A stretch of 64,000 bases of DNA. Origin: Candidatus Poribacteria bacterium. Its GTDB lineage: Bacteria; Poribacteria; WGA-4E; PCPOR2b. This document shows positions 26,990 through 36,360 of this stretch, piece by piece. Each line of letters opens with the position of its first letter. Positions within the stretch are counted from its first letter, which is position 1. Both the position numbers and the translations under genes were made by a program. Location: NCBI GenBank assembly GCA_965208325.1, contig OZ242326.1, positions 3,968,001 through 4,032,000 of the forward strand, given 5' to 3'. The notes below the pieces were generated by a model. That model searched no databases. It was given only the letters and a program-made list of their open reading frames with translations, and was not told the origin of the DNA.

Positions 26990-29155
26990 TCAATCATCAT
27001 CCGTTTCTAAATTCCACATTACCACCGTTCCCGCCGTTGACGCCGCAACTAGTTTTGTGCCGTCCGGCGAGAATGCAACGGAGGTGACTGGATGCGGATC
27101 GCCTTGTAATGAAGTGATGATATTGCCTGTCGAGGCCTCCCACAATTGGACGGAAGCCCACGATCCCGAGGCGAGTTTCGTGCCATCGGGTGAAAATGCC
27201 ACAGAGGCGATCCTATCCTCATGCTCGAGTGTAGCGATATTTTTTCCCGTTGAGATCTCCCACAGTTTGATTGTGTTATCCCATGACCCCGAGGCGATTC
27301 TTGTACCATCGGGTGAGAACGCCACAGAGGACACTCTATCCATGTGCCCAGCGAGCGTCGCGATATTTTTTCCAGACGAAACCTCCCATAGCTTTACGGT
27401 TTTATCGCCGGACCCCGAGGCAAGTATTGTGCCATCGGGTGAGAACGCGACGGAGGAGACCCTATCCGTATGCGCTGTGAGTGTAGCGACGTTTTTTCCT
27501 GTCGAGATGTCCCAGAGCTTAACGGATTCTGCGCCCGAGGCGAGAATCGCGCCGTCGGATGAGAACATCACACAACTGACCCAACCCGTGTGCTTTTGGA
27601 ATGCAGCAATCTCTTTTCTTGTCTCGACATCCCACAGTTGGATGGAAGCCCATGACCCCAAGGCGAGTTTCCTGCCGTCCATTGAGTAAGCAACAGAGTT
27701 AATCCACCCGCTATGCTTGAGTGTGCCGGTATTTAGTCCTGTCTCAATGTCCCACAGTCTGACACCTTGTGATGCCGGCAAAGGGATAGCGAGTTTTGTG
27801 CCGTCAGGCGAGAACACCGCAGCGTTGACTGAACCCGCGTGGCTGAAATTCGTGACGATATTTTTTCCTGTTGAAACATCCAGCAGTTCAATCGTTCCAA
27901 GGTCTCCGGTGGTATGCGCAACTAGCGCACCATTGGGTGAGAACGCGAGGGACTTGTACAATCCATCTCCTTGCCCTCGGAAAGTCTTAATATTTTTTCC
28001 CGACACAACCTCCCACAGTTTAACAGTTCCATTCACTGATCCTGAGACAAGTATTGAACCGTCAGGCGAAAATGCCACGGAGGATACGCGATCCTTATGC
28101 CCTTTGAGTGCGTCGATACTCTTTCTCGTTGCGACATCCCACATTCTGACGGTTTTATCACCGGAACCTGAAACGAATCTTAGACCGTCGGGTGAAAACG
28201 CTACGGATTTGATTTCATCTGTATGTCCTTTAAGCGTGGCGATGTTTTCTCCCGTTGTAACTTCCCACAGTTTGACGGTTTTATCTATTGACCCTGAAAC
28301 GAGTTTTGCGCCATCGGGCGAGAACGCCACAGATCTTGGCAACTCCGTATGCCCGGTGAGTGTGGTGATATTGTTCCCCGTTGCGACCTCCCACAGTTTG
28401 ACTGTTGTATCCACTGACCCCGAAGCGAGTTTCGTACCATCGGGCGAAAAGGCTACGGACCAGACTAAGCTCCTATGGCCGACAATCGTGGCAAAACGTC
28501 TTCCCGTTGCGACCTCCCAGAGTTTAATGTCATCATCGTCACCCGCAGCGAGTAGCGTGCCATCGGGCGAGAATGCCACAGCATGAAGCCAGCCGGACCG
28601 ACCGCCGGCGAATAGCGCGAGTTCACGAGATGTCTGCACGTCATAAAGCCAGACACCAATGGTCGTTGCAACGGCGAGATGTAATCCATCGGGCGAAAAC
28701 GCTATTACTCTGTCACCTTGACTAATTTTCCCTTTTTCAAAGCGGGCGATGGCATTTTCCGGCAAACCCCACGTCTGATATTCTTGAAATCCAACGGCGG
28801 CAGGTAACCTGGGCGGTTTTGGCCTCCGTCCAAAATCGTCATCTTCCCCTTTAGTACCGAGTATCGCAACTCGAGTCGCTTCCACGTCTACGGGGAGTTC
28901 ACCATCCTCGACAACCTGTGTTTTTAGCGGCAGCGAGCCACCCAGCCATTCGCCCACCGGATAAAGCGGGCTGTGTGGAAGGCTTAAACTTAAGAGCAGG
29001 AGAATTAACCCGCCCGCAGCAGATAACCCCAAAGGCAGCGCGGTTTTGTGGGGTGCGGTTTGAATCTTGGCGTCACTGATTAACTCTACTATATGCGCGG
29101 TGAATCCCGGTTGTAATTTTCGTTCGGCAATTGCTGTGTGCATCATTTGAATCAT
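26990..29155 (-). CDS. WD40 repeat protein with N-terminal linker/TM module shared with the adjacent sigma fusion
   Basis: About 13 'GH...V.SVAFSPDG..LASGS.D.TVKLWEV' repeats. The N-terminus matches the post-sigma part of 23479..26280. Start is uncertain (ATG 29155 or 29146). Confidence 0.85.
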   Translation of the reverse strand: MIQMMHTAIAERKLQPGFTAHIVELISDAKIQTAPHKTALPLGLSAAGGLILLLLSLSLPHSPLYPVGEWLGGSLPLKTQVVEDGELPVDVEATRVAILGTKGEDDDFGRRPKPPRLPAAVGFQEYQTWGLPENAIARFEKGKISQGDRVIAFSPDGLHLAVATTIGVWLYDVQTSRELALFAGGRSGWLHAVAFSPDGTLLAAGDDDDIKLWEVATGRRFATIVGHRSLVWSVAFSPDGTKLASGSVDTTVKLWEVATGNNITTLTGHTELPRSVAFSPDGAKLVSGSIDKTVKLWEVTTGENIATLKGHTDEIKSVAFSPDGLRFVSGSGDKTVRMWDVATRKSIDALKGHKDRVSSVAFSPDGSILVSGSVNGTVKLWEVVSGKNIKTFRGQGDGLYKSLAFSPNGALVAHTTGDLGTIELLDVSTGKNIVTNFSHAGSVNAAVFSPDGTKLAIPLPASQGVRLWDIETGLNTGTLKHSGWINSVAYSMDGRKLALGSWASIQLWDVETRKEIAAFQKHTGWVSCVMFSSDGAILASGAESVKLWDISTGKNVATLTAHTDRVSSVAFSPDGTILASGSGDKTVKLWEVSSGKNIATLAGHMDRVSSVAFSPDGTRIASGSWDNTIKLWEISTGKNIATLEHEDRIASVAFSPDGTKLASGSWASVQLWEASTGNIITSLQGDPHPVTSVAFSPDGTKLVAASTAGTVVMWNLETDDD

Positions 29156-29422
29156 CTCCTCACTTAAGTTTTTTTCAGTTTCGTTTTGGCTCGTACGAGT
29201 CTTTGATGGATGACATTCGGATGCCCCGCAACACCTCGACATTCGTGTCCATTCCATGATTTTAAACGTGTTCAGCAAGAAGCGCAGTGACGACTTGTCT
29301 TTCTTGGGCACAATGAAAATTCTTGCTTTGATTTGAAGCAATGGAATAGAGTCGCGGATAGAAATTGTCCCATCGGCGCAGGGTTGATAGATTTTTATAC
29401 GCTTCGAGAAAGCTGTCCTGAG
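29156..29422 (-). pseudogene. Decayed ECF sigma-factor domain
   Basis: Minus strand reads QDSFLEAYKNLSTLRRWDNFYPRLYSIASN, against QDIFLNAYKKLSTLRRWDNFYPWLYSIAAN in the intact copy. It then has a stop, a deletion of most of region 4 and frameshifts; PNVIHQRLVRAKTKLK is retained. Confidence 0.8.
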
Positions 29423-30502: not shown

Positions 30503-31483
30503 ATGACTTTAGAAGAATTTATTAACAAAAAGCAGCCAATCTGGTCAGAGTTGGAAGGGTATTTGAACCGCGGCCGGCGGGGCAATATCGGCAGCGCTAC
30601 GCCAACGCAACTCAATCGTTTGGGATATTTGTACCGCCGTGTGACCTCCGATTTGGCAATTGCCCGGCGCGATTTTCCAGACGACCGCTGTGTTTCATAC
30701 CTGAACACGCTGGCTTCCCGCGCCCACAGCGGCATCTACCAAAGCTCCCCCTTGAAAAGAAACACGATTCGCCAGTTCTTTAGCTCCGGGTTTCCGACGC
30801 TGTTTCGCAGCAACCTCCGTTTCATCTCGGCTGCGTTTTTGCTGTTTACGCTCGGGTTTGCCGCGACATATTGGATGGCGCTGGTGAACCCTCAAATTGC
30901 GGAAAAACTCGCGCCTGAAGACATTGTTGATACGATACACGAGAAGGAGATGTGGACGAACATTCCGGAGTTACAGCGAAATCTGTTTGCTTCATTTATC
31001 ATGACCAATAACATTCGTGTCGCGTTTTTGGCGTTCGCTAGCGGTATCATGTATATGGTCGGAACAGTTTATATTCTAGCCTTCAATGGTGTGCACATCG
31101 GCACGATTGCAGGGTTATGCCACGTGCATGGGCTCGCCCAGCCACTCTGGACGTTTGTGTCGCCGCACGGTTATATCGAATTGACGACAATTTTTATCGC
31201 GGGTGGTGCGGGCTTAAAAATGGGGTATGCGCTGATTGGCCCGACACTGTTTACCCGGAAACGCGCATTGACCGATGCAGCGAAAACCGCGGTCAAACTC
31301 ATCGGCGGCTGCGTTGTTCTGCTCGTCATCGCCGGCGTGATTGAGGGTTTTATCTCACCTTCAGGTTTACCGCCACCCGTCAAGGTCGGATTCGGATTCA
31401 CAACCGGCGTGTTGCTGTTCTCCTATCTCTTTTTGATGGGCAGGTCGAGAAAACCGTCGATACCGACAAATGCGGAAGATTAG
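30503..31483 (+). CDS. Stage II sporulation protein M (SpoIIM/DUF95) family membrane protein
   Basis: 'LYRRVTSDLA', 'IMTNNIRVAFLAF', 'PHGYIELT.I.IAGGAG', 'AGVIEGFISP'. Confidence 0.9.
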   Translation: MTLEEFINKKQPIWSELEGYLNRGRRGNIGSATPTQLNRLGYLYRRVTSDLAIARRDFPDDRCVSYLNTLASRAHSGIYQSSPLKRNTIRQFFSSGFPTLFRSNLRFISAAFLLFTLGFAATYWMALVNPQIAEKLAPEDIVDTIHEKEMWTNIPELQRNLFASFIMTNNIRVAFLAFASGIMYMVGTVYILAFNGVHIGTIAGLCHVHGLAQPLWTFVSPHGYIELTTIFIAGGAGLKMGYALIGPTLFTRKRALTDAAKTAVKLIGGCVVLLVIAGVIEGFISPSGLPPPVKVGFGFTTGVLLFSYLFLMGRSRKPSIPTNAED

Positions 31484-31533
31484 GTGTGTTTGACATATCG
31501 CCCGCTCTTGAACCTGGTAAGGAGCATTTTTAA

Positions 31534-32184
31534 TTGTCGAATACCACGTTAGACAGGGAATTGATGGCTTGTAGACCAGTCCCTGTGAATCCTAAATTCT
31601 TCAATCCAAACTGTACGCTTCCTTATGGTTTGGCGGTAGAACATATCCGTCAAGCAATGGAAGGTTTTGTTGATTTCCTAGGGTTTATTAACGCGCAACT
31701 TTACACGAAGGAGATTCCGCGCCTTGAAAGTTTCTTAATGCCCGCAAACTTTAGTAGCATCGTTGGCGAGTTCATCAACACCAACATACCGATGCATTGC
31801 TTTGACTTAGCGAAGAACCAGTATCACAATGGACATCCAGATTTGCTTCCAAAAACGATGTTTCCGAATAATGCGGTGCAGTATGCGCAAGAAGGCATCG
31901 AAGTTAAAGCGTCCCGTCATGCAAGCGGCTGGCAAGGGCACAACCCAGAATCCGTTTGGCTTATGGTGTTTTACTTTGACAGTAATACTTCACGCGATTC
32001 CATCAAGGGCGTCGATCCTAAGCCATTTCGATTTAAGGGAGTATTTATTGCCCGAATTGTAAAAGAGGACTGGACATTTTCGGGGCGTTCGGGTGCCAGC
32101 CGACGGACAATCACCGCTAGTGTAAACACAAGCGGGAGAGAAAAAATGATGGCTAACTGGGTATATAAGGACTTAACAGATTGA
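31534..32184 (+). CDS. Putative Type II restriction endonuclease (PD-(D/E)xK)
   Basis: 'GHPDLL...GIEVKAS' catalytic-like motif. Convergent with, and overlapping, a DNA methyltransferase gene. Confidence 0.65.
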   Translation: MSNTTLDRELMACRPVPVNPKFFNPNCTLPYGLAVEHIRQAMEGFVDFLGFINAQLYTKEIPRLESFLMPANFSSIVGEFINTNIPMHCFDLAKNQYHNGHPDLLPKTMFPNNAVQYAQEGIEVKASRHASGWQGHNPESVWLMVFYFDSNTSRDSIKGVDPKPFRFKGVFIARIVKEDWTFSGRSGASRRTITASVNTSGREKMMANWVYKDLTD

Positions 32185-33117
32185 CAGACTAAGTTGTACA
32201 TCTCCGGTGTTTAGATTCTCCAAAGCGGGTATCGCTTGCCGGCTCATTGTATAGTATTTGTCGTAGCATTCTACACCGATGCAGGAGTATTTGATTGCTT
32301 CTGCGGCAGCGACAGTGGAGCCGGAGCCCATAAACGGATCTACTACTATTCCTTCCCCAAGTGGTAGAGCGGAGTAAACCACCTGCCGCAAAAACGACTG
32401 TGGTTTTAAACTCGGATGATTGGCAATTCCGCGCTCCTTCTGTGAGGTGCGTTCGCTTTCTATTACATCTGTAAAGGGGTTTCCATCCGGTTTTCGGCGT
32501 AACCCTCCGGTTTGAAACTCTTCTAGACATTCGCTTACCGTCATTCCGTTTAGGAGCGGTTTTCGAAAAATCCCCCAAGGCTCGTAACAACTGCGCGGCA
32601 TCGTGCAAACATTAGAAAATTCTTTCTCTGCATTCTTAGGTCTGTCGCCGCCCCGCAGCGTTTTTACCAACCGGATTACTTGGCCCCTAAACTCAAAACC
32701 TGCATCTAAAATTGATGTAAACACTGTCTGCGATAGCAAGGCGTTTGAAGCAAGAAAGATGTGACCTCCAGGGCGCAAAATTTGGGAAACGAGCCGCGCC
32801 CAATCGAGAAAATGTTCTTGCAGCCGGGTTATTTCTTTCTGGTTGAGTGCTGTAAAACGCGGCAAAGGTGAGCGCTTGTGCCCATCAAAAGAGGGTGGAA
32901 TGCGCCAAACACCGCCGTTTCCATTTTCACGCTTTTCTAGCTGGTCGGGTTGGTATTCCTTTACACCATATGGTGGATCTGTTACAATTGCATGGATACT
33001 CTCTTTGGGGATTCTCGCCATCCATTCAAAACAATTAGCACAGATTATCACAGATTTTGCAAATGAGTAAGACTTGTAATCTAAAGCATAAAGCTGCTGT
33101 AGTCGATTTGTCGGCAT
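32173..33117 (-). CDS. Site-specific DNA methyltransferase, N6-adenine/N4-cytosine type (beta class)
   Basis: Motif IV 'TDPPY' precedes 'HPSLKP' and motif I 'DPFMGSGST'. Confidence 0.92.
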   Translation of the reverse strand: MPTNRLQQLYALDYKSYSFAKSVIICANCFEWMARIPKESIHAIVTDPPYGVKEYQPDQLEKRENGNGGVWRIPPSFDGHKRSPLPRFTALNQKEITRLQEHFLDWARLVSQILRPGGHIFLASNALLSQTVFTSILDAGFEFRGQVIRLVKTLRGGDRPKNAEKEFSNVCTMPRSCYEPWGIFRKPLLNGMTVSECLEEFQTGGLRRKPDGNPFTDVIESERTSQKERGIANHPSLKPQSFLRQVVYSALPLGEGIVVDPFMGSGSTVAAAEAIKYSCIGVECYDKYYTMSRQAIPALENLNTGDVQLSLSIC

Positions 33118-33126
33118 GGTTAGCTC

Positions 33127-33369
33127 CTACTGCTCGACTGGTTCGCCAAGGTTGTAAACGGGGCTAAGCTCTCGGATGACAGTTCCTATTTCTCGCCTCT
33201 CAAATTCATTTCCTCCCAATAATTTTTGAATGTCTGACAAACTGAGCAATATGACCTGCGGCGTGTTTCGGCGTTTTATCACATATCTGGTGTTGTTCTG
33301 GATGACATCATCAAGGATGCTGCCAAAATTGTTTTGAGCTTCAGTAGAGGGAATCGTTTTTGTAGTCAT
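33127..33369 (-). CDS. Phd/YefM family antitoxin-like DNA-binding protein
   Basis: 'KTIPSTEAQNNFGSILDDV......YVIKRRNTPQVILLS' is the Phd/YefM N-terminal fold. GGAGA RBS at 33376-33380. Confidence 0.8.
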   Translation of the reverse strand: MTTKTIPSTEAQNNFGSILDDVIQNNTRYVIKRRNTPQVILLSLSDIQKLLGGNEFERREIGTVIRELSPVYNLGEPVEQ

Positions 33370-33391
33370 ATCCAATCTCCAATTTTTCCAT

Positions 33392-33439
33392 ATTAGCTAA
33401 TTTAGCTATATTATAGCATGGACTTGATGCTTGTGTCAA
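33392..33439 (-). promoter_or_regulatory. Sigma70 promoter with tandem palindromic operator
   Basis: Minus strand: TTGACA (33439-33434), 18 nt, TATAAT (33415-33410) with an extended-10 TG. Immediately followed by the palindromes TAGCTA (33403-33408) and ATTAGCTAAT (33392-33401). Confidence 0.75.
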
Positions 33440-33581
33440 AGGTTTTGGAGAGGCAATTTTCAAAATCACCTGGCGCAGCGCAACGATTTACCGATGATCC
33501 AGCTATTCGCGGTTTTCATCGTAAATTGTCTCATTAGCCCACCACGCGAAATTCCTTTGAACGCCAGAGGGGCGGCGATAA

Positions 33582-35159
33582 ATGACAGATCGTAATCATC
33601 AACAGGATTTAGCGGCGCAGATTGAAAACTACTATCAGTCGGGTGAATTTGATAAGGCTTTAGAGTTTAGTGCGCGCGCAGTGGATTCTAATCCTGCGGC
33701 CTTGGATGTTTATGGTTTACGATGGAAACTCATAGCCAAAATGTTTTCAGAGGAGGACGCAAAAGAGAGGATTCACTTTGAAATCGAATCTCTGCTGAAG
33801 ACACACCTAGAAACCCCGGAGTTATTGGAGGCGGCTTACTGGGGATATAGGAACCTTTCCCATGACGCAGAGAATATCCCCAACAGTTTGTTTCATAAGA
33901 TGTTGCAATACCCCAGCACCAGAGGTTTTCAGATTGCATTGTTAGGGTTTGCTGAACAGAGCGAAGATGTCCGCCAAAAGTGGTATTATCACCAGCGCCA
34001 TATTGATACCTATGCCACCTCAGACGCCCCAGTATTATCATGGAATCTCATAGCATATGAAGAAATGCTTTGGTTAGCCGAAGAAAATCGCTCGCTGGCG
34101 AGCTATGACGAACTTGATGAACTTATTGACCGGTTCTTAAAAGTTCATCTTTCCCTTTGCAAAGAGACCCAACGATGGTTTGGATGGGCTTATACTGAAG
34201 CGGTAAAATGGCGGCTCAAGCTTAACGTCCGAATGGACAAAGCATTGGAAATCTTGAGACGTGCCGAAGCTAGATTAGAGGAGGAAGAGGAACGGGAGTG
34301 GCTCGTCGAAAATAACCGAGGATCTGTAGAAGAAGCAAATAGGGAGTTTTCGCGCTTGCGCGGAGAAATCCACTTGCGGCAGGAACGGTGGAGAGAGGCG
34401 CATGATGGGCTTTTAGCAAACGCGCCCGATTTTTTGGAATCGCTATGGGCTAGATTGAACGAAAATGCCGCAAATTACTTCTGGATGTTAGGGCGGTCAG
34501 CCGAAGGAATGCTAGAATGGCATAAAGCGAGGCGTTACTATGCCGATGCGCACTTTGCGCCTACCTCGCACGCCGAAAAAGGCCGAGCGGGATTGGAACG
34601 CGTTTATCGTCAAATGGAGCGAGAGGAAACTATTGATACGTTCGAGACTTTTCTCAAAGCCGCCGAAGCTGAGTATCGAATTCGAGAAGATGCCGACCGC
34701 GAGAAAATCCGTCAGAAACTTGTCATGAATAGACTAAATAGGAAAGTGCCGGATTTTTGTTTAGAGACTTTGGAAGGGGAGGAACACACGCTATCGGCGA
34801 TGCGAGGCAAGGTGATTTTGCTTGATGTTGGGGCTTCGTGGTGCGGGCCATGCAATGAGGCGATTCCGGAAGTCAAAATTGTCCACGAACGATTCAGTGA
34901 TACAGATGATGCCGTCGTATGGGGAATCAATGACGGTGAAACTCCTCAGCAAGTACAAAAGATTTTGGAAGAACATCAGCCACCTTGGCCTATGCTGCTG
35001 GACCCACGCCAGGAGGTGAGGAAGGCTTACCAGATTGAAAGAATACCATTTTTTATTCTGATTGACAAAGCGGGGGATTGGCAATACAGTTTTGAAAGTT
35101 CAAATCTCATAGGCGGTCAGCCGTTGATTTGGCTGGTTGGAGCACTGCTAGCAGATTGA
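33582..35159 (+). CDS. TPR-like helical protein with C-terminal TlpA/redoxin domain
   Basis: 'PDFCLETLEG...LSAMRGKVILLD..ASWCGPC' CxxC motif. N-terminus is helical and TPR-like. Confidence 0.8.
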   Translation: MTDRNHQQDLAAQIENYYQSGEFDKALEFSARAVDSNPAALDVYGLRWKLIAKMFSEEDAKERIHFEIESLLKTHLETPELLEAAYWGYRNLSHDAENIPNSLFHKMLQYPSTRGFQIALLGFAEQSEDVRQKWYYHQRHIDTYATSDAPVLSWNLIAYEEMLWLAEENRSLASYDELDELIDRFLKVHLSLCKETQRWFGWAYTEAVKWRLKLNVRMDKALEILRRAEARLEEEEEREWLVENNRGSVEEANREFSRLRGEIHLRQERWREAHDGLLANAPDFLESLWARLNENAANYFWMLGRSAEGMLEWHKARRYYADAHFAPTSHAEKGRAGLERVYRQMEREETIDTFETFLKAAEAEYRIREDADREKIRQKLVMNRLNRKVPDFCLETLEGEEHTLSAMRGKVILLDVGASWCGPCNEAIPEVKIVHERFSDTDDAVVWGINDGETPQQVQKILEEHQPPWPMLLDPRQEVRKAYQIERIPFFILIDKAGDWQYSFESSNLIGGQPLIWLVGALLAD

Positions 35160-35266: not shown

Positions 35267-35746
35267 ATGAGACAATTTACCGATGCTGAAAAACAGCAGT
35301 TGCAAGCAAAGATTTGTGACCAACAAGAGCGGCGCAATTCGACGGTCAGAGAAATTGCCCGGCGGCGCGATGGAAAAAAACCGGAAACGCCCGCGTGGAA
35401 ATATGGTTTCTTGGGACTAATTGTCTGCTTCGTCGTCTTAAACGTGTATATTCTGCTGAAAGGTGAATTTTCGAGGTATGACCAATATGGCGGTGTTGCA
35501 TTCGTGCTTTGGGTGCTATTCGATCACATCGCAGTATACTTCACGAAAACAGGTTGGCAAAGACGCGTGATGACATCGGTTGCGCGGATTTGGTTTGTAT
35601 TCGTTTTAGTCTACGGAGTTTGGATTCTATCTACAATCTCCTTTCCATGGATGGCTGGTTATTTGGTTTTAATAATAATCTTTTTTGTAGTGTGGCCGGA
35701 TTCATTTTGGCGTGAGATTTTCGGTAAAAACTCTCGCTACAATTGA
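35267..35746 (+). CDS. Hypothetical membrane protein, paralogue 1 ('MRQFTDAEKQ' family)
   Basis: GGAG RBS, charged helical N-terminus and ~4 TM segments. Clear similarity to the next two ORFs. Confidence 0.75.
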   Translation: MRQFTDAEKQQLQAKICDQQERRNSTVREIARRRDGKKPETPAWKYGFLGLIVCFVVLNVYILLKGEFSRYDQYGGVAFVLWVLFDHIAVYFTKTGWQRRVMTSVARIWFVFVLVYGVWILSTISFPWMAGYLVLIIIFFVVWPDSFWREIFGKNSRYN

Positions 35747-35880
35747 ATTGATGTCGATGACTGAAACGAGGATCAAAATCAAAACAGTTACATGGATTAG
35801 ATTTTTTTTGCGCTTACACAGTTTGTGTATTGTGGCTGGTATTCGTTGCTCGACCACGGTGCCCTAGGAGGTCATTTCCG

Positions 35881-36360
35881 ATGAGGGAATTTACCGACGC
35901 AGAAAAACAGGAGTTAAAAGAAAAGATTAAAGACGAGCAAGAACGGCAAAAGCAATTAGCCGAACAACTTGCTCAACAAAAAGACGGAACGCCGCGAAGA
36001 AGTTCAACCGCGGGTAAATATGTATACCTCGGGTTTGTTCTGTGTCTGCTCGCGTTCAACGTGTTTATCCTGCTAAACTTGCGGCATATCGGTCTTGACA
36101 AATTTGGCGGTTTGATATTTGTGTTGTGGGCTTTATTTGATTGCATCGCAGTTTACTTCACGAAAGCGGGTTGGCAGAGACTCGTGATGAAAACCGTGGC
36201 TCAGGTTTGGTATGTGGTCATGTTTGCGTACGGGTTTTGGATTCTTGCCAAGGTGTCGTTCCCATTGTTGGCAATTTGGGCGGCTGTGATTGTCTTGTTG
36301 AGCGTTTGGCGGATTTCAATTTGGCGGCCAATCTTCGGCAAAAACTCGCGTTACCGATGA
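35881..36360 (+). CDS. Hypothetical membrane protein, paralogue 2
   Basis: GGAGG RBS then MREFTDAEKQ. Shares 'LFD.IAVYFTK.GWQR' and 'IFGKNSRY' with paralogue 1. Confidence 0.75.
   Translation: MREFTDAEKQELKEKIKDEQERQKQLAEQLAQQKDGTPRRSSTAGKYVYLGFVLCLLAFNVFILLNLRHIGLDKFGGLIFVLWALFDCIAVYFTKAGWQRLVMKTVAQVWYVVMFAYGFWILAKVSFPLLAIWAAVIVLLSVWRISIWRPIFGKNSRYR

Follow-up and report, generated by a model that had tools for sequence, protein, structure and literature searches.

The DNA analysed here, a 64,000-nt stretch of contig OZ242326.1 from a Candidatus Poribacteria bacterium (positions 3,968,001 to 4,032,000; hereafter, the window), contains a restriction-modification (R-M) locus. On its minus strand, a promoter is followed by a small gene whose product has the fold of the Phd/YefM antitoxins (the Phd protein) and then by a DNA methyltransferase gene (M), on which a nuclease gene (R) converges from the plus strand. 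We describe the locus and its relatives below, and consider that the Phd protein is probably the controller of the operon that it shares with M.

Organization of the locus

The promoter of the Phd-M operon consists of the -35 hexamer TTGACA (33439-33434) and the -10 hexamer TATAAT (33415-33410), the latter with a TG in front, separated by an 18-nt spacer. A preliminary description of this DNA had reported this promoter, and our sigma-70 scan confirmed it on the minus strand (33439-33410) as a 12/12 match and as the sole perfect site within 31300-33700. Beyond the -10 hexamer lies a 15-bp dyad, TAGCTA-AAT-TAGCTA (33394..33408, minus strand), which we regard as a candidate operator for the Phd protein. 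Its arms occupy 33408-33403 and 33399-33394 with AAT between them; the first arm begins 1 nt past the -10 hexamer, and the dyad is situated over the expected transcription start of the operon. A ribosome-binding site, GGAG (33377..33380, minus strand), is located 7 nt ahead of the ATG of the Phd gene. This gene (33127..33369, minus strand) comprises 80 codons and a stop; the open reading frame (ORF) caller selected a TTG at 33375 as its start, and we prefer the alternative ATG at 33369 because the homologues open with MTTKTIP. M (32173..33117, minus strand; 314 aa) begins 9 nt after the Phd stop codon, and a GGAG is found inside this gap. R (31534..32184, plus strand; 216 aa) overlaps the end of M tail to tail by 12 bp (32173..32184). 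Because this overlap leaves no intergenic space for a terminator, the transcripts of M and R must overlap. Tail overlaps of 4 to 15 bp were also found in the related loci L001, L003, L005, L006 and L007, and the overlap was unaccompanied by a terminator in all loci inspected.

The restriction-modification pair

M is a beta-class N6/N4 DNA methyltransferase. It matched PF01555 (E 3.9e-18) and the PADLOC model MTase_II (PDLC03215, E 3.3e-102), and its translation contains DPPY at residues 47-50 and FMGSGST near residues 262-268, which is the beta-class order of motifs. R matched no Pfam family, found no relative among solved structures by sequence even at E 10, and reached merely E 1.2e-4 against PADLOC REase_II. 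Because the sequence search of solved structures had found nothing, the fold of R was compared by structure. The closest structures to its AlphaFold model (predicted local distance difference test, pLDDT, 90.6) were NaeI (Z 9.7 over 148 residues; root-mean-square deviation, rmsd, 3.7), SwaI (7.0) and the restriction endonuclease 3ndh (6.7); SfiI, EcoRV (Z 5.9) and BglI were matched as well, and the best matches were all Type II enzymes of the EcoRV branch. Foldseek also placed NaeI and EcoRV on top (NaeI, E 7e-5). Moreover, D103 (in GHPDL), E123 and K125 (both in EGIEVK) are invariant in 31 aligned sequences and form a PD-(D/E)XK signature. The preliminary description had spoken of a PD-ExK gene that converges on M with a 12-bp overlap, and both the coordinates and the catalytic residues agree with it; the 216-aa ORF does have the nuclease fold on which that description depended.

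The R family has more than 3243 homologues, typically 65-90% identical, for which the sources name Chloroflexota, Bacillota and Deltaproteobacteria. We surveyed 87 loci that encode R homologues, comprising 7 genomic loci and 80 metagenomic loci (the best 80 of 544 confirmed relatives). A convergent M adjoins R in 85 of these, and the contigs of the other two stop 53-91 nt past R. We conclude that the pair is a bona fide Type II system and that R is a real restriction endonuclease.

Distant relatives of R (~31% identity) were also seen on plasmid NZ_CP011607.1 (L121) and on similar plasmids of 4.9 kb, where they are convergent with a DNA methyltransferase. These mobilizable, ColE1-like plasmids belong to Klebsiella, Citrobacter and Raoultella, and their R relatives are annotated as hypothetical proteins. 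In the genome that contains the window, several palindromes are strongly depleted relative to a maximal-order Markov expectation (observed/expected ratios: GGCC 0.38, CAGCTG 0.40, GACGTC 0.46, GATC 0.47 and CTCGAG 0.47). Such depletion points to several R-M specificities, either current or former, and palindrome avoidance offered no single candidate for a recognition site assignable to R.

A Phd/YefM-fold protein without a toxin

The Phd protein matched PF02604 over residues 6-54 (E 7.8e-11; 42 bits against a cut-off of 29.8) and TIGR01552 narrowly (21.6 against a cut-off of 20.8). Its predicted structure (pLDDT 77.9) has a beta-alpha-alpha-beta-beta-alpha core and a less confident tail; the elements are strands at residues 3-7, 28-33 and 36-41 and helices at residues 8-13, 15-25, 44-52 and 55-68. 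Among the Foldseek matches listed for this model, nearly all are YefM, Phd or YefM-type RelB antitoxins, with E-values of 1.7e-3 and weaker. The superpositions are close (2odk_D, rmsd 1.7 over 52 columns; 3hry_B, 1.8 over 51; range over the core, 1.5-2.9 A), and the matches include Phd and YefM chains out of solved complexes with operator DNA. By sequence, the protein gave a chance match only to solved structures, and no HTH (helix-turn-helix) family matched it in Pfam. Nine core residues, S8, T9, Q12, N13, N14, F15, G16, V22 and R33, are invariant among 26 aligned members of the Phd subfamily.

The N-terminal domain of a Phd/YefM antitoxin is therefore present both by sequence and by fold. 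The adjacent cognate toxin (Doc, YoeB, RelE/ParE or VapC) that characterizes such antitoxins is lacking: the downstream gene encodes a DNA methyltransferase, here as in the relatives. Neither a toxin gene nor a toxin remnant was found among the neighbours in the ORF list or by Pfam, the locus leaves no space for a remnant, and the genes that flank the locus are a SpoIIM-family gene (30503-31483) and a thioredoxin-like gene with an AhpC-TSA domain (33582-35159). Two small ORFs across the promoter had no Pfam match. The statements of the preliminary description that an ~80-aa Phd/YefM-like gene is followed after 9 nt by a beta-class methyltransferase, and that no RelE, PIN or Doc toxin is adjacent, were thus both borne out (PF02604, PF01555 and the motif order for the former). 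We found no fusion of a Phd domain to a methyltransferase among the 8 longest Phd matches, whose extra domains look unrelated or like artefacts of gene calling.

Recurrence of the Phd gene in homologous loci

In 27 of the 87 surveyed loci, M is directly preceded on its own strand by a Phd homologue (56-95% identity), mostly with the 9-nt spacing. In 61 loci, the M start is complete and the upstream sequence is visible for 300 nt or more, and these we treated as comparable; 26 of them have the Phd gene and 35 lack it. Its carriers belong to at least two phyla. Among them are another Candidatus Poribacteria chromosome, with 95% identity and the same flanks, as well as Anaerolineae and a Chloroflexus genome whose R is only 58% identical, the lowest value among the carriers.

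Might the Phd gene be a chance neighbour, that is, the orphan antitoxin of a decayed toxin-antitoxin (TA) locus with no role in the R-M system? Orphan antitoxins are common, and the sources call the homologues 'prevent-host-death' or 'Phd/YefM family antitoxin'. Against this, the position, strand, 9-nt spacing and promoter recur in the 27 loci and in at least two phyla, and the subfamily stands beside methyltransferases in every intact case and never beside toxins. This synteny already contradicts a chance association, which we regard as virtually out of the question.

Conservation of the promoter and operator

We compared 38 cassettes: the one in the window, 27 from window-type loci and 10 from the remaining contexts described below. 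First, a -35/-10 pair matching at least 9/12 positions is located 31-68 nt before the start codon in 38/38 cassettes, and the match is 12/12 in 18 of them. Second, two TAnnTA hexamers separated by 3 nt follow the -10 hexamer directly in 38/38, the right arm, TTAGCTAAT, being the best conserved part. Third, the sequence 5' of the -35 hexamer is unrelated between loci, so that the promoter forms the boundary of the cassette. The relatives contain operator variants, including TACCTAtatTAGGTA, the arms TACCTA/TAGGTA (spacer tat) in NotI-type loci, and TGGATA/TATCTA elsewhere. The preliminary description had noted two tandem TAGCTA palindromes; these are present at the place reported, but they are better viewed as one 15-bp dyad, because the arms in the relatives (as in TACCTA-tat-TAGGTA) are inverted repeats of each other and not themselves palindromes.

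Within the window, the statistics of these elements are weak: promoter-like sites of at least 9/12 are not enriched (6 versus 3.5 +/- 1.7 expected), and 0.88 occurrences of TAGCTANNNTAGCTA at up to 2 mismatches are expected per window. It is their identical position in 38/38 cassettes that places the promoter and operator beyond chance. Furthermore, in 417,677 nt of related loci, the tandem motif gave 17 strand-hits in 10 loci, all upstream of Phd genes; none fell in the loci without a Phd gene or elsewhere in this sequence. The exact dyad is a single copy in the 4.7-Mb genome. Dyads with one mismatch occur at only 2 other places in this genome (G000:C1:758711-758725 and 3454409-3454423).

Which protein binds the operator? 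Because the methyltransferases differ among the cassettes, whereas the operator and the Phd gene occur together, the Phd protein, and not M, is likely to be the binder. A co-variation between Phd residue 10 (E versus T, A or I) and the operator core was considered by eye and given up: three of the four variant loci agree with it, and the fourth, L043, contradicts it. Likewise, we rejected the idea that the operator is a recognition site of the R-M system with an AGCT core, in that the operators TACCTAtatTAGGTA and TGGATAgatTATCTA of relatives lack AGCT and one type of operator serves systems with different enzymes.

The cassette in unrelated restriction-modification systems

A close Phd homologue was found in 12 of the 176 genomes of the window's phylum, in several contexts. 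Two genomes have the window-type system. Within one genus, 7 genomes have the Phd gene in front of a different PF01555 methyltransferase (357 aa) that is convergent with a NotI-family nuclease (PF12183); this nuclease gene is intact in 3 of the 7, frameshifted or interrupted in 2, truncated by the end of the contig in one and missing from another. Each of three further contexts was seen in one genome. In the first, the Phd gene accompanies paired PF01555 methyltransferases; in the second, the methyltransferase is of the D12 class (PF02086) and an EcoRV-family nuclease (PF09233, E 3e-31) converges on it; and in the third, a lone copy lies beside a TnpB-type transposase gene, with the methyltransferase reduced to its first 25 codons. 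The Phd-promoter-operator cassette is therefore portable between unrelated R-M systems.

Several loci with the cassette are decaying. The NotI-type nuclease of L101 is split over two frames; that of L106 can be aligned over its full length, with an open frame of 192 aa; and L107 has no nuclease, a Phd gene truncated to 56 aa and a partly missing operator. The locus with the shortened methyltransferase, L103, keeps the Phd gene and promoter next to a TnpB/IS605 gene. In L114 the nuclease is fragmentary, and L115 has an in-frame TAG in its Phd gene and broken methyltransferase and nuclease genes.

The subfamily is small and, judging from its sequence matches, sharply bounded from ordinary YefM proteins. 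Among 401 Chloroflexota genomes there were 6 Phd matches (E 5e-28 to 2.5e-39) and none between these and the limit of 1e-10. All 6 copies precede a window-type M, and a convergent R is recognizable in 5, two of which belong to visibly decayed systems; the sixth contig ends inside M. By comparison, 401 cyanobacterial genomes gave only 4 weak matches to the N-terminal domain; all 4 belong to ordinary YefM proteins, and in 2 cases a YoeB toxin follows. Searching 1.84 billion cluster representatives with a profile returned only 36 clusters (at 50% identity) at E <=1e-10, and a word-indexed search returned 241 Phd homologues, all named antitoxins by their sources. No Phd homologues were found in collections of plasmids, phages and viral contigs at the sensitivities used. 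In all intact cases examined, the Phd gene lies beside a methyltransferase gene and never beside a toxin gene.

These contexts bear on a further possibility, namely that the Phd protein and M themselves form a pair resembling a TA module, an over-active methyltransferase being the toxic partner. The gene order, with a small Phd gene, a larger partner 9 nt farther on and a promoter of the autoregulated type, does mirror a type II TA operon. However, methyltransferases of different families (PF01555 variants and PF02086) serve as the partner and are usually joined by a cognate convergent nuclease, and this combination is the signature of an R-M system and not of a toxin. We know of no precedent for a Phd-methyltransferase toxin-antitoxin pair, and we give this explanation hardly any credence.

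The conserved C-terminal segment

The similarity of the Phd proteins extends beyond the DNA-binding domain. A C-terminal segment, ER..i..vIRELsPvY.LGe, is conserved in the 26 aligned members, with Y72 and G75 invariant and E57, E67 and P70 conserved in at least 90%. This conservation spans cassettes that are paired with four sets of unrelated nucleases and methyltransferases.

The preliminary description had offered, as one of two readings, that the antitoxin-like protein binds and neutralizes the nuclease in a hybrid TA/R-M system. In its general form, this reading holds that the C-terminal part of the Phd protein binds R (or M), neutralizing it or using it as a co-repressor, with or without binding of DNA. 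In true Phd/YefM antitoxins, the region after the DNA-binding domain binds the toxin. The Phd protein retains a helix (55-68) and the conserved tail in this region; its C-terminal part corresponds to the toxin-binding region of the true antitoxins, and solved complexes are among its structural matches. In addition, R-M systems are described as acting as addiction modules (PMC3874152). Against direct neutralization, an interface specific to one partner should diverge when the partner changes, yet the segment is conserved across all four enzyme sets, including those with window-type, NotI-family and EcoRV-family nucleases. Furthermore, the 35 of 61 homologous R-M pairs mentioned above do without the Phd gene, and others use an HTH controller (C) protein. 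A complex prediction for the nuclease and the Phd protein, made with alignments and without controls, scored 0.00 and speaks neither for nor against binding. We consider neutralization very unlikely. The pattern of conservation leaves oligomerization, stability or a common partner as roles that the tail may have.

Exchange of regulators on one restriction-modification backbone

What occupies the place of the Phd gene in the other loci? An Xre-type HTH gene (PF01381) lies immediately upstream of R in 8 loci and also on the Acidiphilium multivorum plasmid pACMV5, where an annotated HTH regulator accompanies an R of 58.8% identity and a convergent M. The HTH C proteins of these sister loci matched PF01381 with E 5e-17 to 8e-18. 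A repeated, conserved GACTTATAG-type box, seen in HTH loci only, precedes most of these HTH genes and looks like a classical C-box. In one case, P0108, a 286-aa R homologue has an N-terminal Xre-type HTH domain and represents a fusion of a C protein with the nuclease. In several loci without the Phd gene, other small DNA-binding proteins are encoded immediately upstream of M, namely HTH_17 (4e-9), Cro/C1 HTH_26 (2e-13), MerR (3e-14) and HTH_3 (1.5e-8) proteins, together with weaker ribbon-helix-helix, zinc-ribbon and MarR-like candidates. The slot upstream of M thus seems to accept many regulator folds. Examples of such DNA binders among L025-L087 are L056:5088-5327, L073:5097-5330, L074:2479-2721 and L087:4249-4782.

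In the 51 loci in which both sides are visible, the Phd gene alone was found in 19, an HTH gene alone in 6, neither in 25 and both in 1. In this last locus, L037, the HTH match has 34% identity and is encoded on the opposite strand; we take it to be probably unrelated. A maximum-likelihood tree of R (87 rows) has one well-supported half with 26 Phd, 7 HTH-C, 2 'none' and 1 'other' labels, and the other half contains 14 'none', 8 'other', 1 HTH-C and 1 Phd. The Phd label requires 8 parsimony changes, at least 2 of which are forced by well-supported branches. Because the labels interleave on the tree, the regulator has been exchanged on one R-M backbone.

The cyanobacterial relatives L003 and L004, which have no Phd cassette, show another arrangement (L003:2756-3997 and L004:2801-3985): a Uma2-family nuclease gene (PF05685) precedes R on the same strand, and is itself preceded by an ORF of 153 aa that matches Phd/YefM weakly, below the cut-off (E 3.7e-5). 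In L004, a pair of ORFs upstream of M resembles, by eye, an antitoxin and a RelE/ParE-type toxin.

Proposed regulation of the system

How might the Phd protein regulate this system? From the arrangement of these sequences, we consider it probable that a controller with the Phd/YefM fold, and without an HTH, autorepresses the strong promoter of the Phd-M operon of a Type II R-M system. The preliminary description had suggested that a TA antitoxin was co-opted as the R-M controller, and had proposed a search for the Phd-M gene pair with a convergent nuclease and for the operator. That search recovered the arrangement in 26/61 comparable loci and the operator in 38 cassettes. The suggestion is supported by this synteny, by the promoter and operator in 38/38 cassettes, by the occurrence of the cassette at other methyltransferase loci, by the HTH C proteins of the sister loci and by the fold of the nuclease. 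We consider the accompanying claim, that this locus is the best candidate for a new system in the window, too strong. The locus is a Type II R-M system of the ordinary sort that has an antitoxin-derived controller, and what is new is the kind of controller and not the principle of defence.

Mobile R-M systems need a delayed nuclease, in that the methyltransferase must precede the nuclease at each entry into a new cell. We propose that the Phd-M operon could meet this need as follows. In a newly entered cell, which contains no repressor, the strong promoter would at first give a surge of methyltransferase. As Phd protein builds up, it would bind the dyad as a dimer or a pair of dimers, block RNA polymerase and throttle the operon to a maintenance level. 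An operator over the +1 position of a consensus promoter implies repression only. The strong early transcription of M would also continue into R in antisense and keep its expression low; once the Phd-M operon is repressed, R would be released, so that the nuclease would appear late. Any effect on R must be indirect, because neither an operator nor a sigma-70-like promoter was found ahead of it. The control of R through convergent transcription is the least certain step, and we put it forward tentatively, as an idea that may well be right but has slightly less than an even chance.

If this last step is wrong, the Phd protein may merely limit the level of M by negative feedback, so that incoming DNA stays unprotected, with no role in the timing of R. 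All of the evidence for autorepression of the Phd-M operon supports this role as well, and no operator lies near R. In three relatives of the NotI-type system, the pair also persists where the nuclease gene is frameshifted (L101), interrupted (L106) or absent (L107, in which the Phd gene is itself truncated). On the other hand, with the genes overlapping tail to tail and no terminator in the loci inspected, transcription from M must cross R. A role limited to M departs from the regulation proposed above solely in its last step; we consider it rather unlikely, though a serious contender.

Several observations weigh against autorepression with delayed release of R as the general explanation. The Phd gene is missing from 35 of the 61 comparable loci and is therefore dispensable for this R-M family. 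Even the 26/61 overstates its share in the family as a whole, because the loci were chosen as the best matches to R; the homologues of R exceed 3243 and those of the Phd protein number 241. Related loci are, moreover, not independent samples. No operator-like site was found upstream of R in any Phd-type locus, and the scan found no sigma-70-like promoter between R and its upstream gene. On the minus strand, a single terminator-like site (31469-31454) was found, beyond the 5' end of R; it is weak and no more than chance would give (1 versus 3.0 expected). Lastly, this explanation gives no role to the conserved C-terminal helix (55-68) and PxYxLG tail.

A bolder version would take up this tail. 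Phd/YefM-fold proteins might constitute a second, unrecognized class of R-M controllers whose tail is itself regulated; their cassette, complete with promoter, dyad and repressor, would insert ahead of the methyltransferases of unrelated Type II systems and take the place of the HTH C proteins. The conserved tail would then be a protease-sensitive degron or a site for a shared component of the cell or of R-M systems; stress or gene loss could shift the balance between M and R, and the R-M system would act as a three-part addiction module, connecting the evolution of R-M regulators with that of TA antitoxins. We regard this version as improbable, although less so than neutralization of the nuclease.

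Comparison with known regulatory systems

The Phd gene resembles the genes of the HTH C proteins (PvuII, BamHI, AhdI and Esp1396I) in several respects. Both encode small factors that belong to the R-M system, act on an operator of their own (probably so for the Phd protein), are autoregulated, again probably here, and have been swapped between unrelated systems. They also fill the same evolutionary slot, since sister loci of this R-M family carry an HTH C protein and C-box-like repeats. The differences are equally clear. The Phd protein has the Phd/YefM fold and not that of an Xre-type HTH; its gene precedes M and not R; and the candidate operator lies past the -10 hexamer and is unrelated in sequence to C-boxes. 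Of the features that define a C protein, the locus thus has a gene within the system that is shared with unrelated R-M systems, and it has neither the HTH fold nor a C-box with co-transcription of R. Typical C proteins, as set out in a review (PMC12707154), initially stimulate transcription from a weak C-R promoter and later repress it.

The logic closest to our proposal is that of Kpn2I, in which R is driven by a constitutive promoter of low strength and the strong promoter of M is the target of repression by the C protein (PMC6237814). As proposed here, the R promoter is untouched by the controller and the strong M promoter is repressed. C.Kpn2I differs in being an HTH protein that is divergent from M and that also acts as an elongation roadblock in its own gene, whereas the Phd gene is co-transcribed with M.

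A similar comparison holds for antitoxins. The yefM-yoeB and phd-doc operons share with this locus the N-terminal fold, a small first gene in a two-gene operon, and short palindromic hexamers over the promoter; in yefM-yoeB these are reportedly paired palindromes with a TGTACA core. Unlike in these operons, the partner here is a DNA methyltransferase, the tail is conserved whatever the partner, and the subfamily is sharply separate.

The DNA-binding domain that is fused to the SsoII and Ecl18kI methyltransferases is an HTH. These systems resemble our proposal in the autorepression of the M promoter and the indirect relief of R, and differ from it in that the binder is fused to M, whereas here it is a separate Phd-fold protein and the genes are convergent. 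Methyltransferases that repress their own promoter are described as relieving R indirectly, by promoter or transcription interference (PMC2760811, PMC3978073), and R and M of Ecl18kI as divergent with the operator between them. In EcoRI and Eco29kI, overlapping or opposing transcription restrains one of the genes (PMC12707154). These two systems share with the present locus the convergent R and M genes and, in our proposal, the antisense transcription. They differ in that their antisense promoter is not governed by a protein dedicated to this purpose, whereas here a repressor would set its strength.

We found no description of a Phd/YefM-type R-M regulator in the literature that was searched by full text, REBASE and subscription journals lying outside the reach of this search. 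The accessible parts of two reviews of R-M regulation, PMC3874152 (2013) and PMC12707154 (2025), describe C proteins as HTH proteins and do not mention a Phd-type regulator. The textbook solutions to the timing of M and R rely on HTH C proteins, on methyltransferases with a fused repressor domain or on antisense RNAs (PMC12707154). If our proposal is true, a Phd/YefM controller would be a fourth, structurally unrelated solution to the problem of making M before R, and the slot in a single R-M family would have been filled repeatedly, by Phd, Xre HTH, MerR, HTH_17 and Cro/C1 proteins. It would also be an antitoxin-type repressor that works without a toxin, which bears on the exchange of parts between TA and R-M systems. 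The database name 'type II toxin-antitoxin system antitoxin' would then lead to a miscount of TA loci and to the oversight of an R-M regulator. The cassette itself would be a compact, portable and self-limiting expression unit.

Other features of the window

Two tandem, paralogous ORFs of 159 and 176 aa are located on the plus strand at 35267-35746 and 35830-36360. According to the ORF list, both have the N-terminal motif M(R)(Q/E)FTDAEKQ and a hydrophobic C-terminal half, and the sister genome, L005, contains one such ORF at the corresponding position. On the minus strand, at 26990-29341, a 783-aa ORF consists of ...SVAFSPDG...GS.D.T(V/I)KLW(E/D)... repeats, which appear WD40-like by eye.

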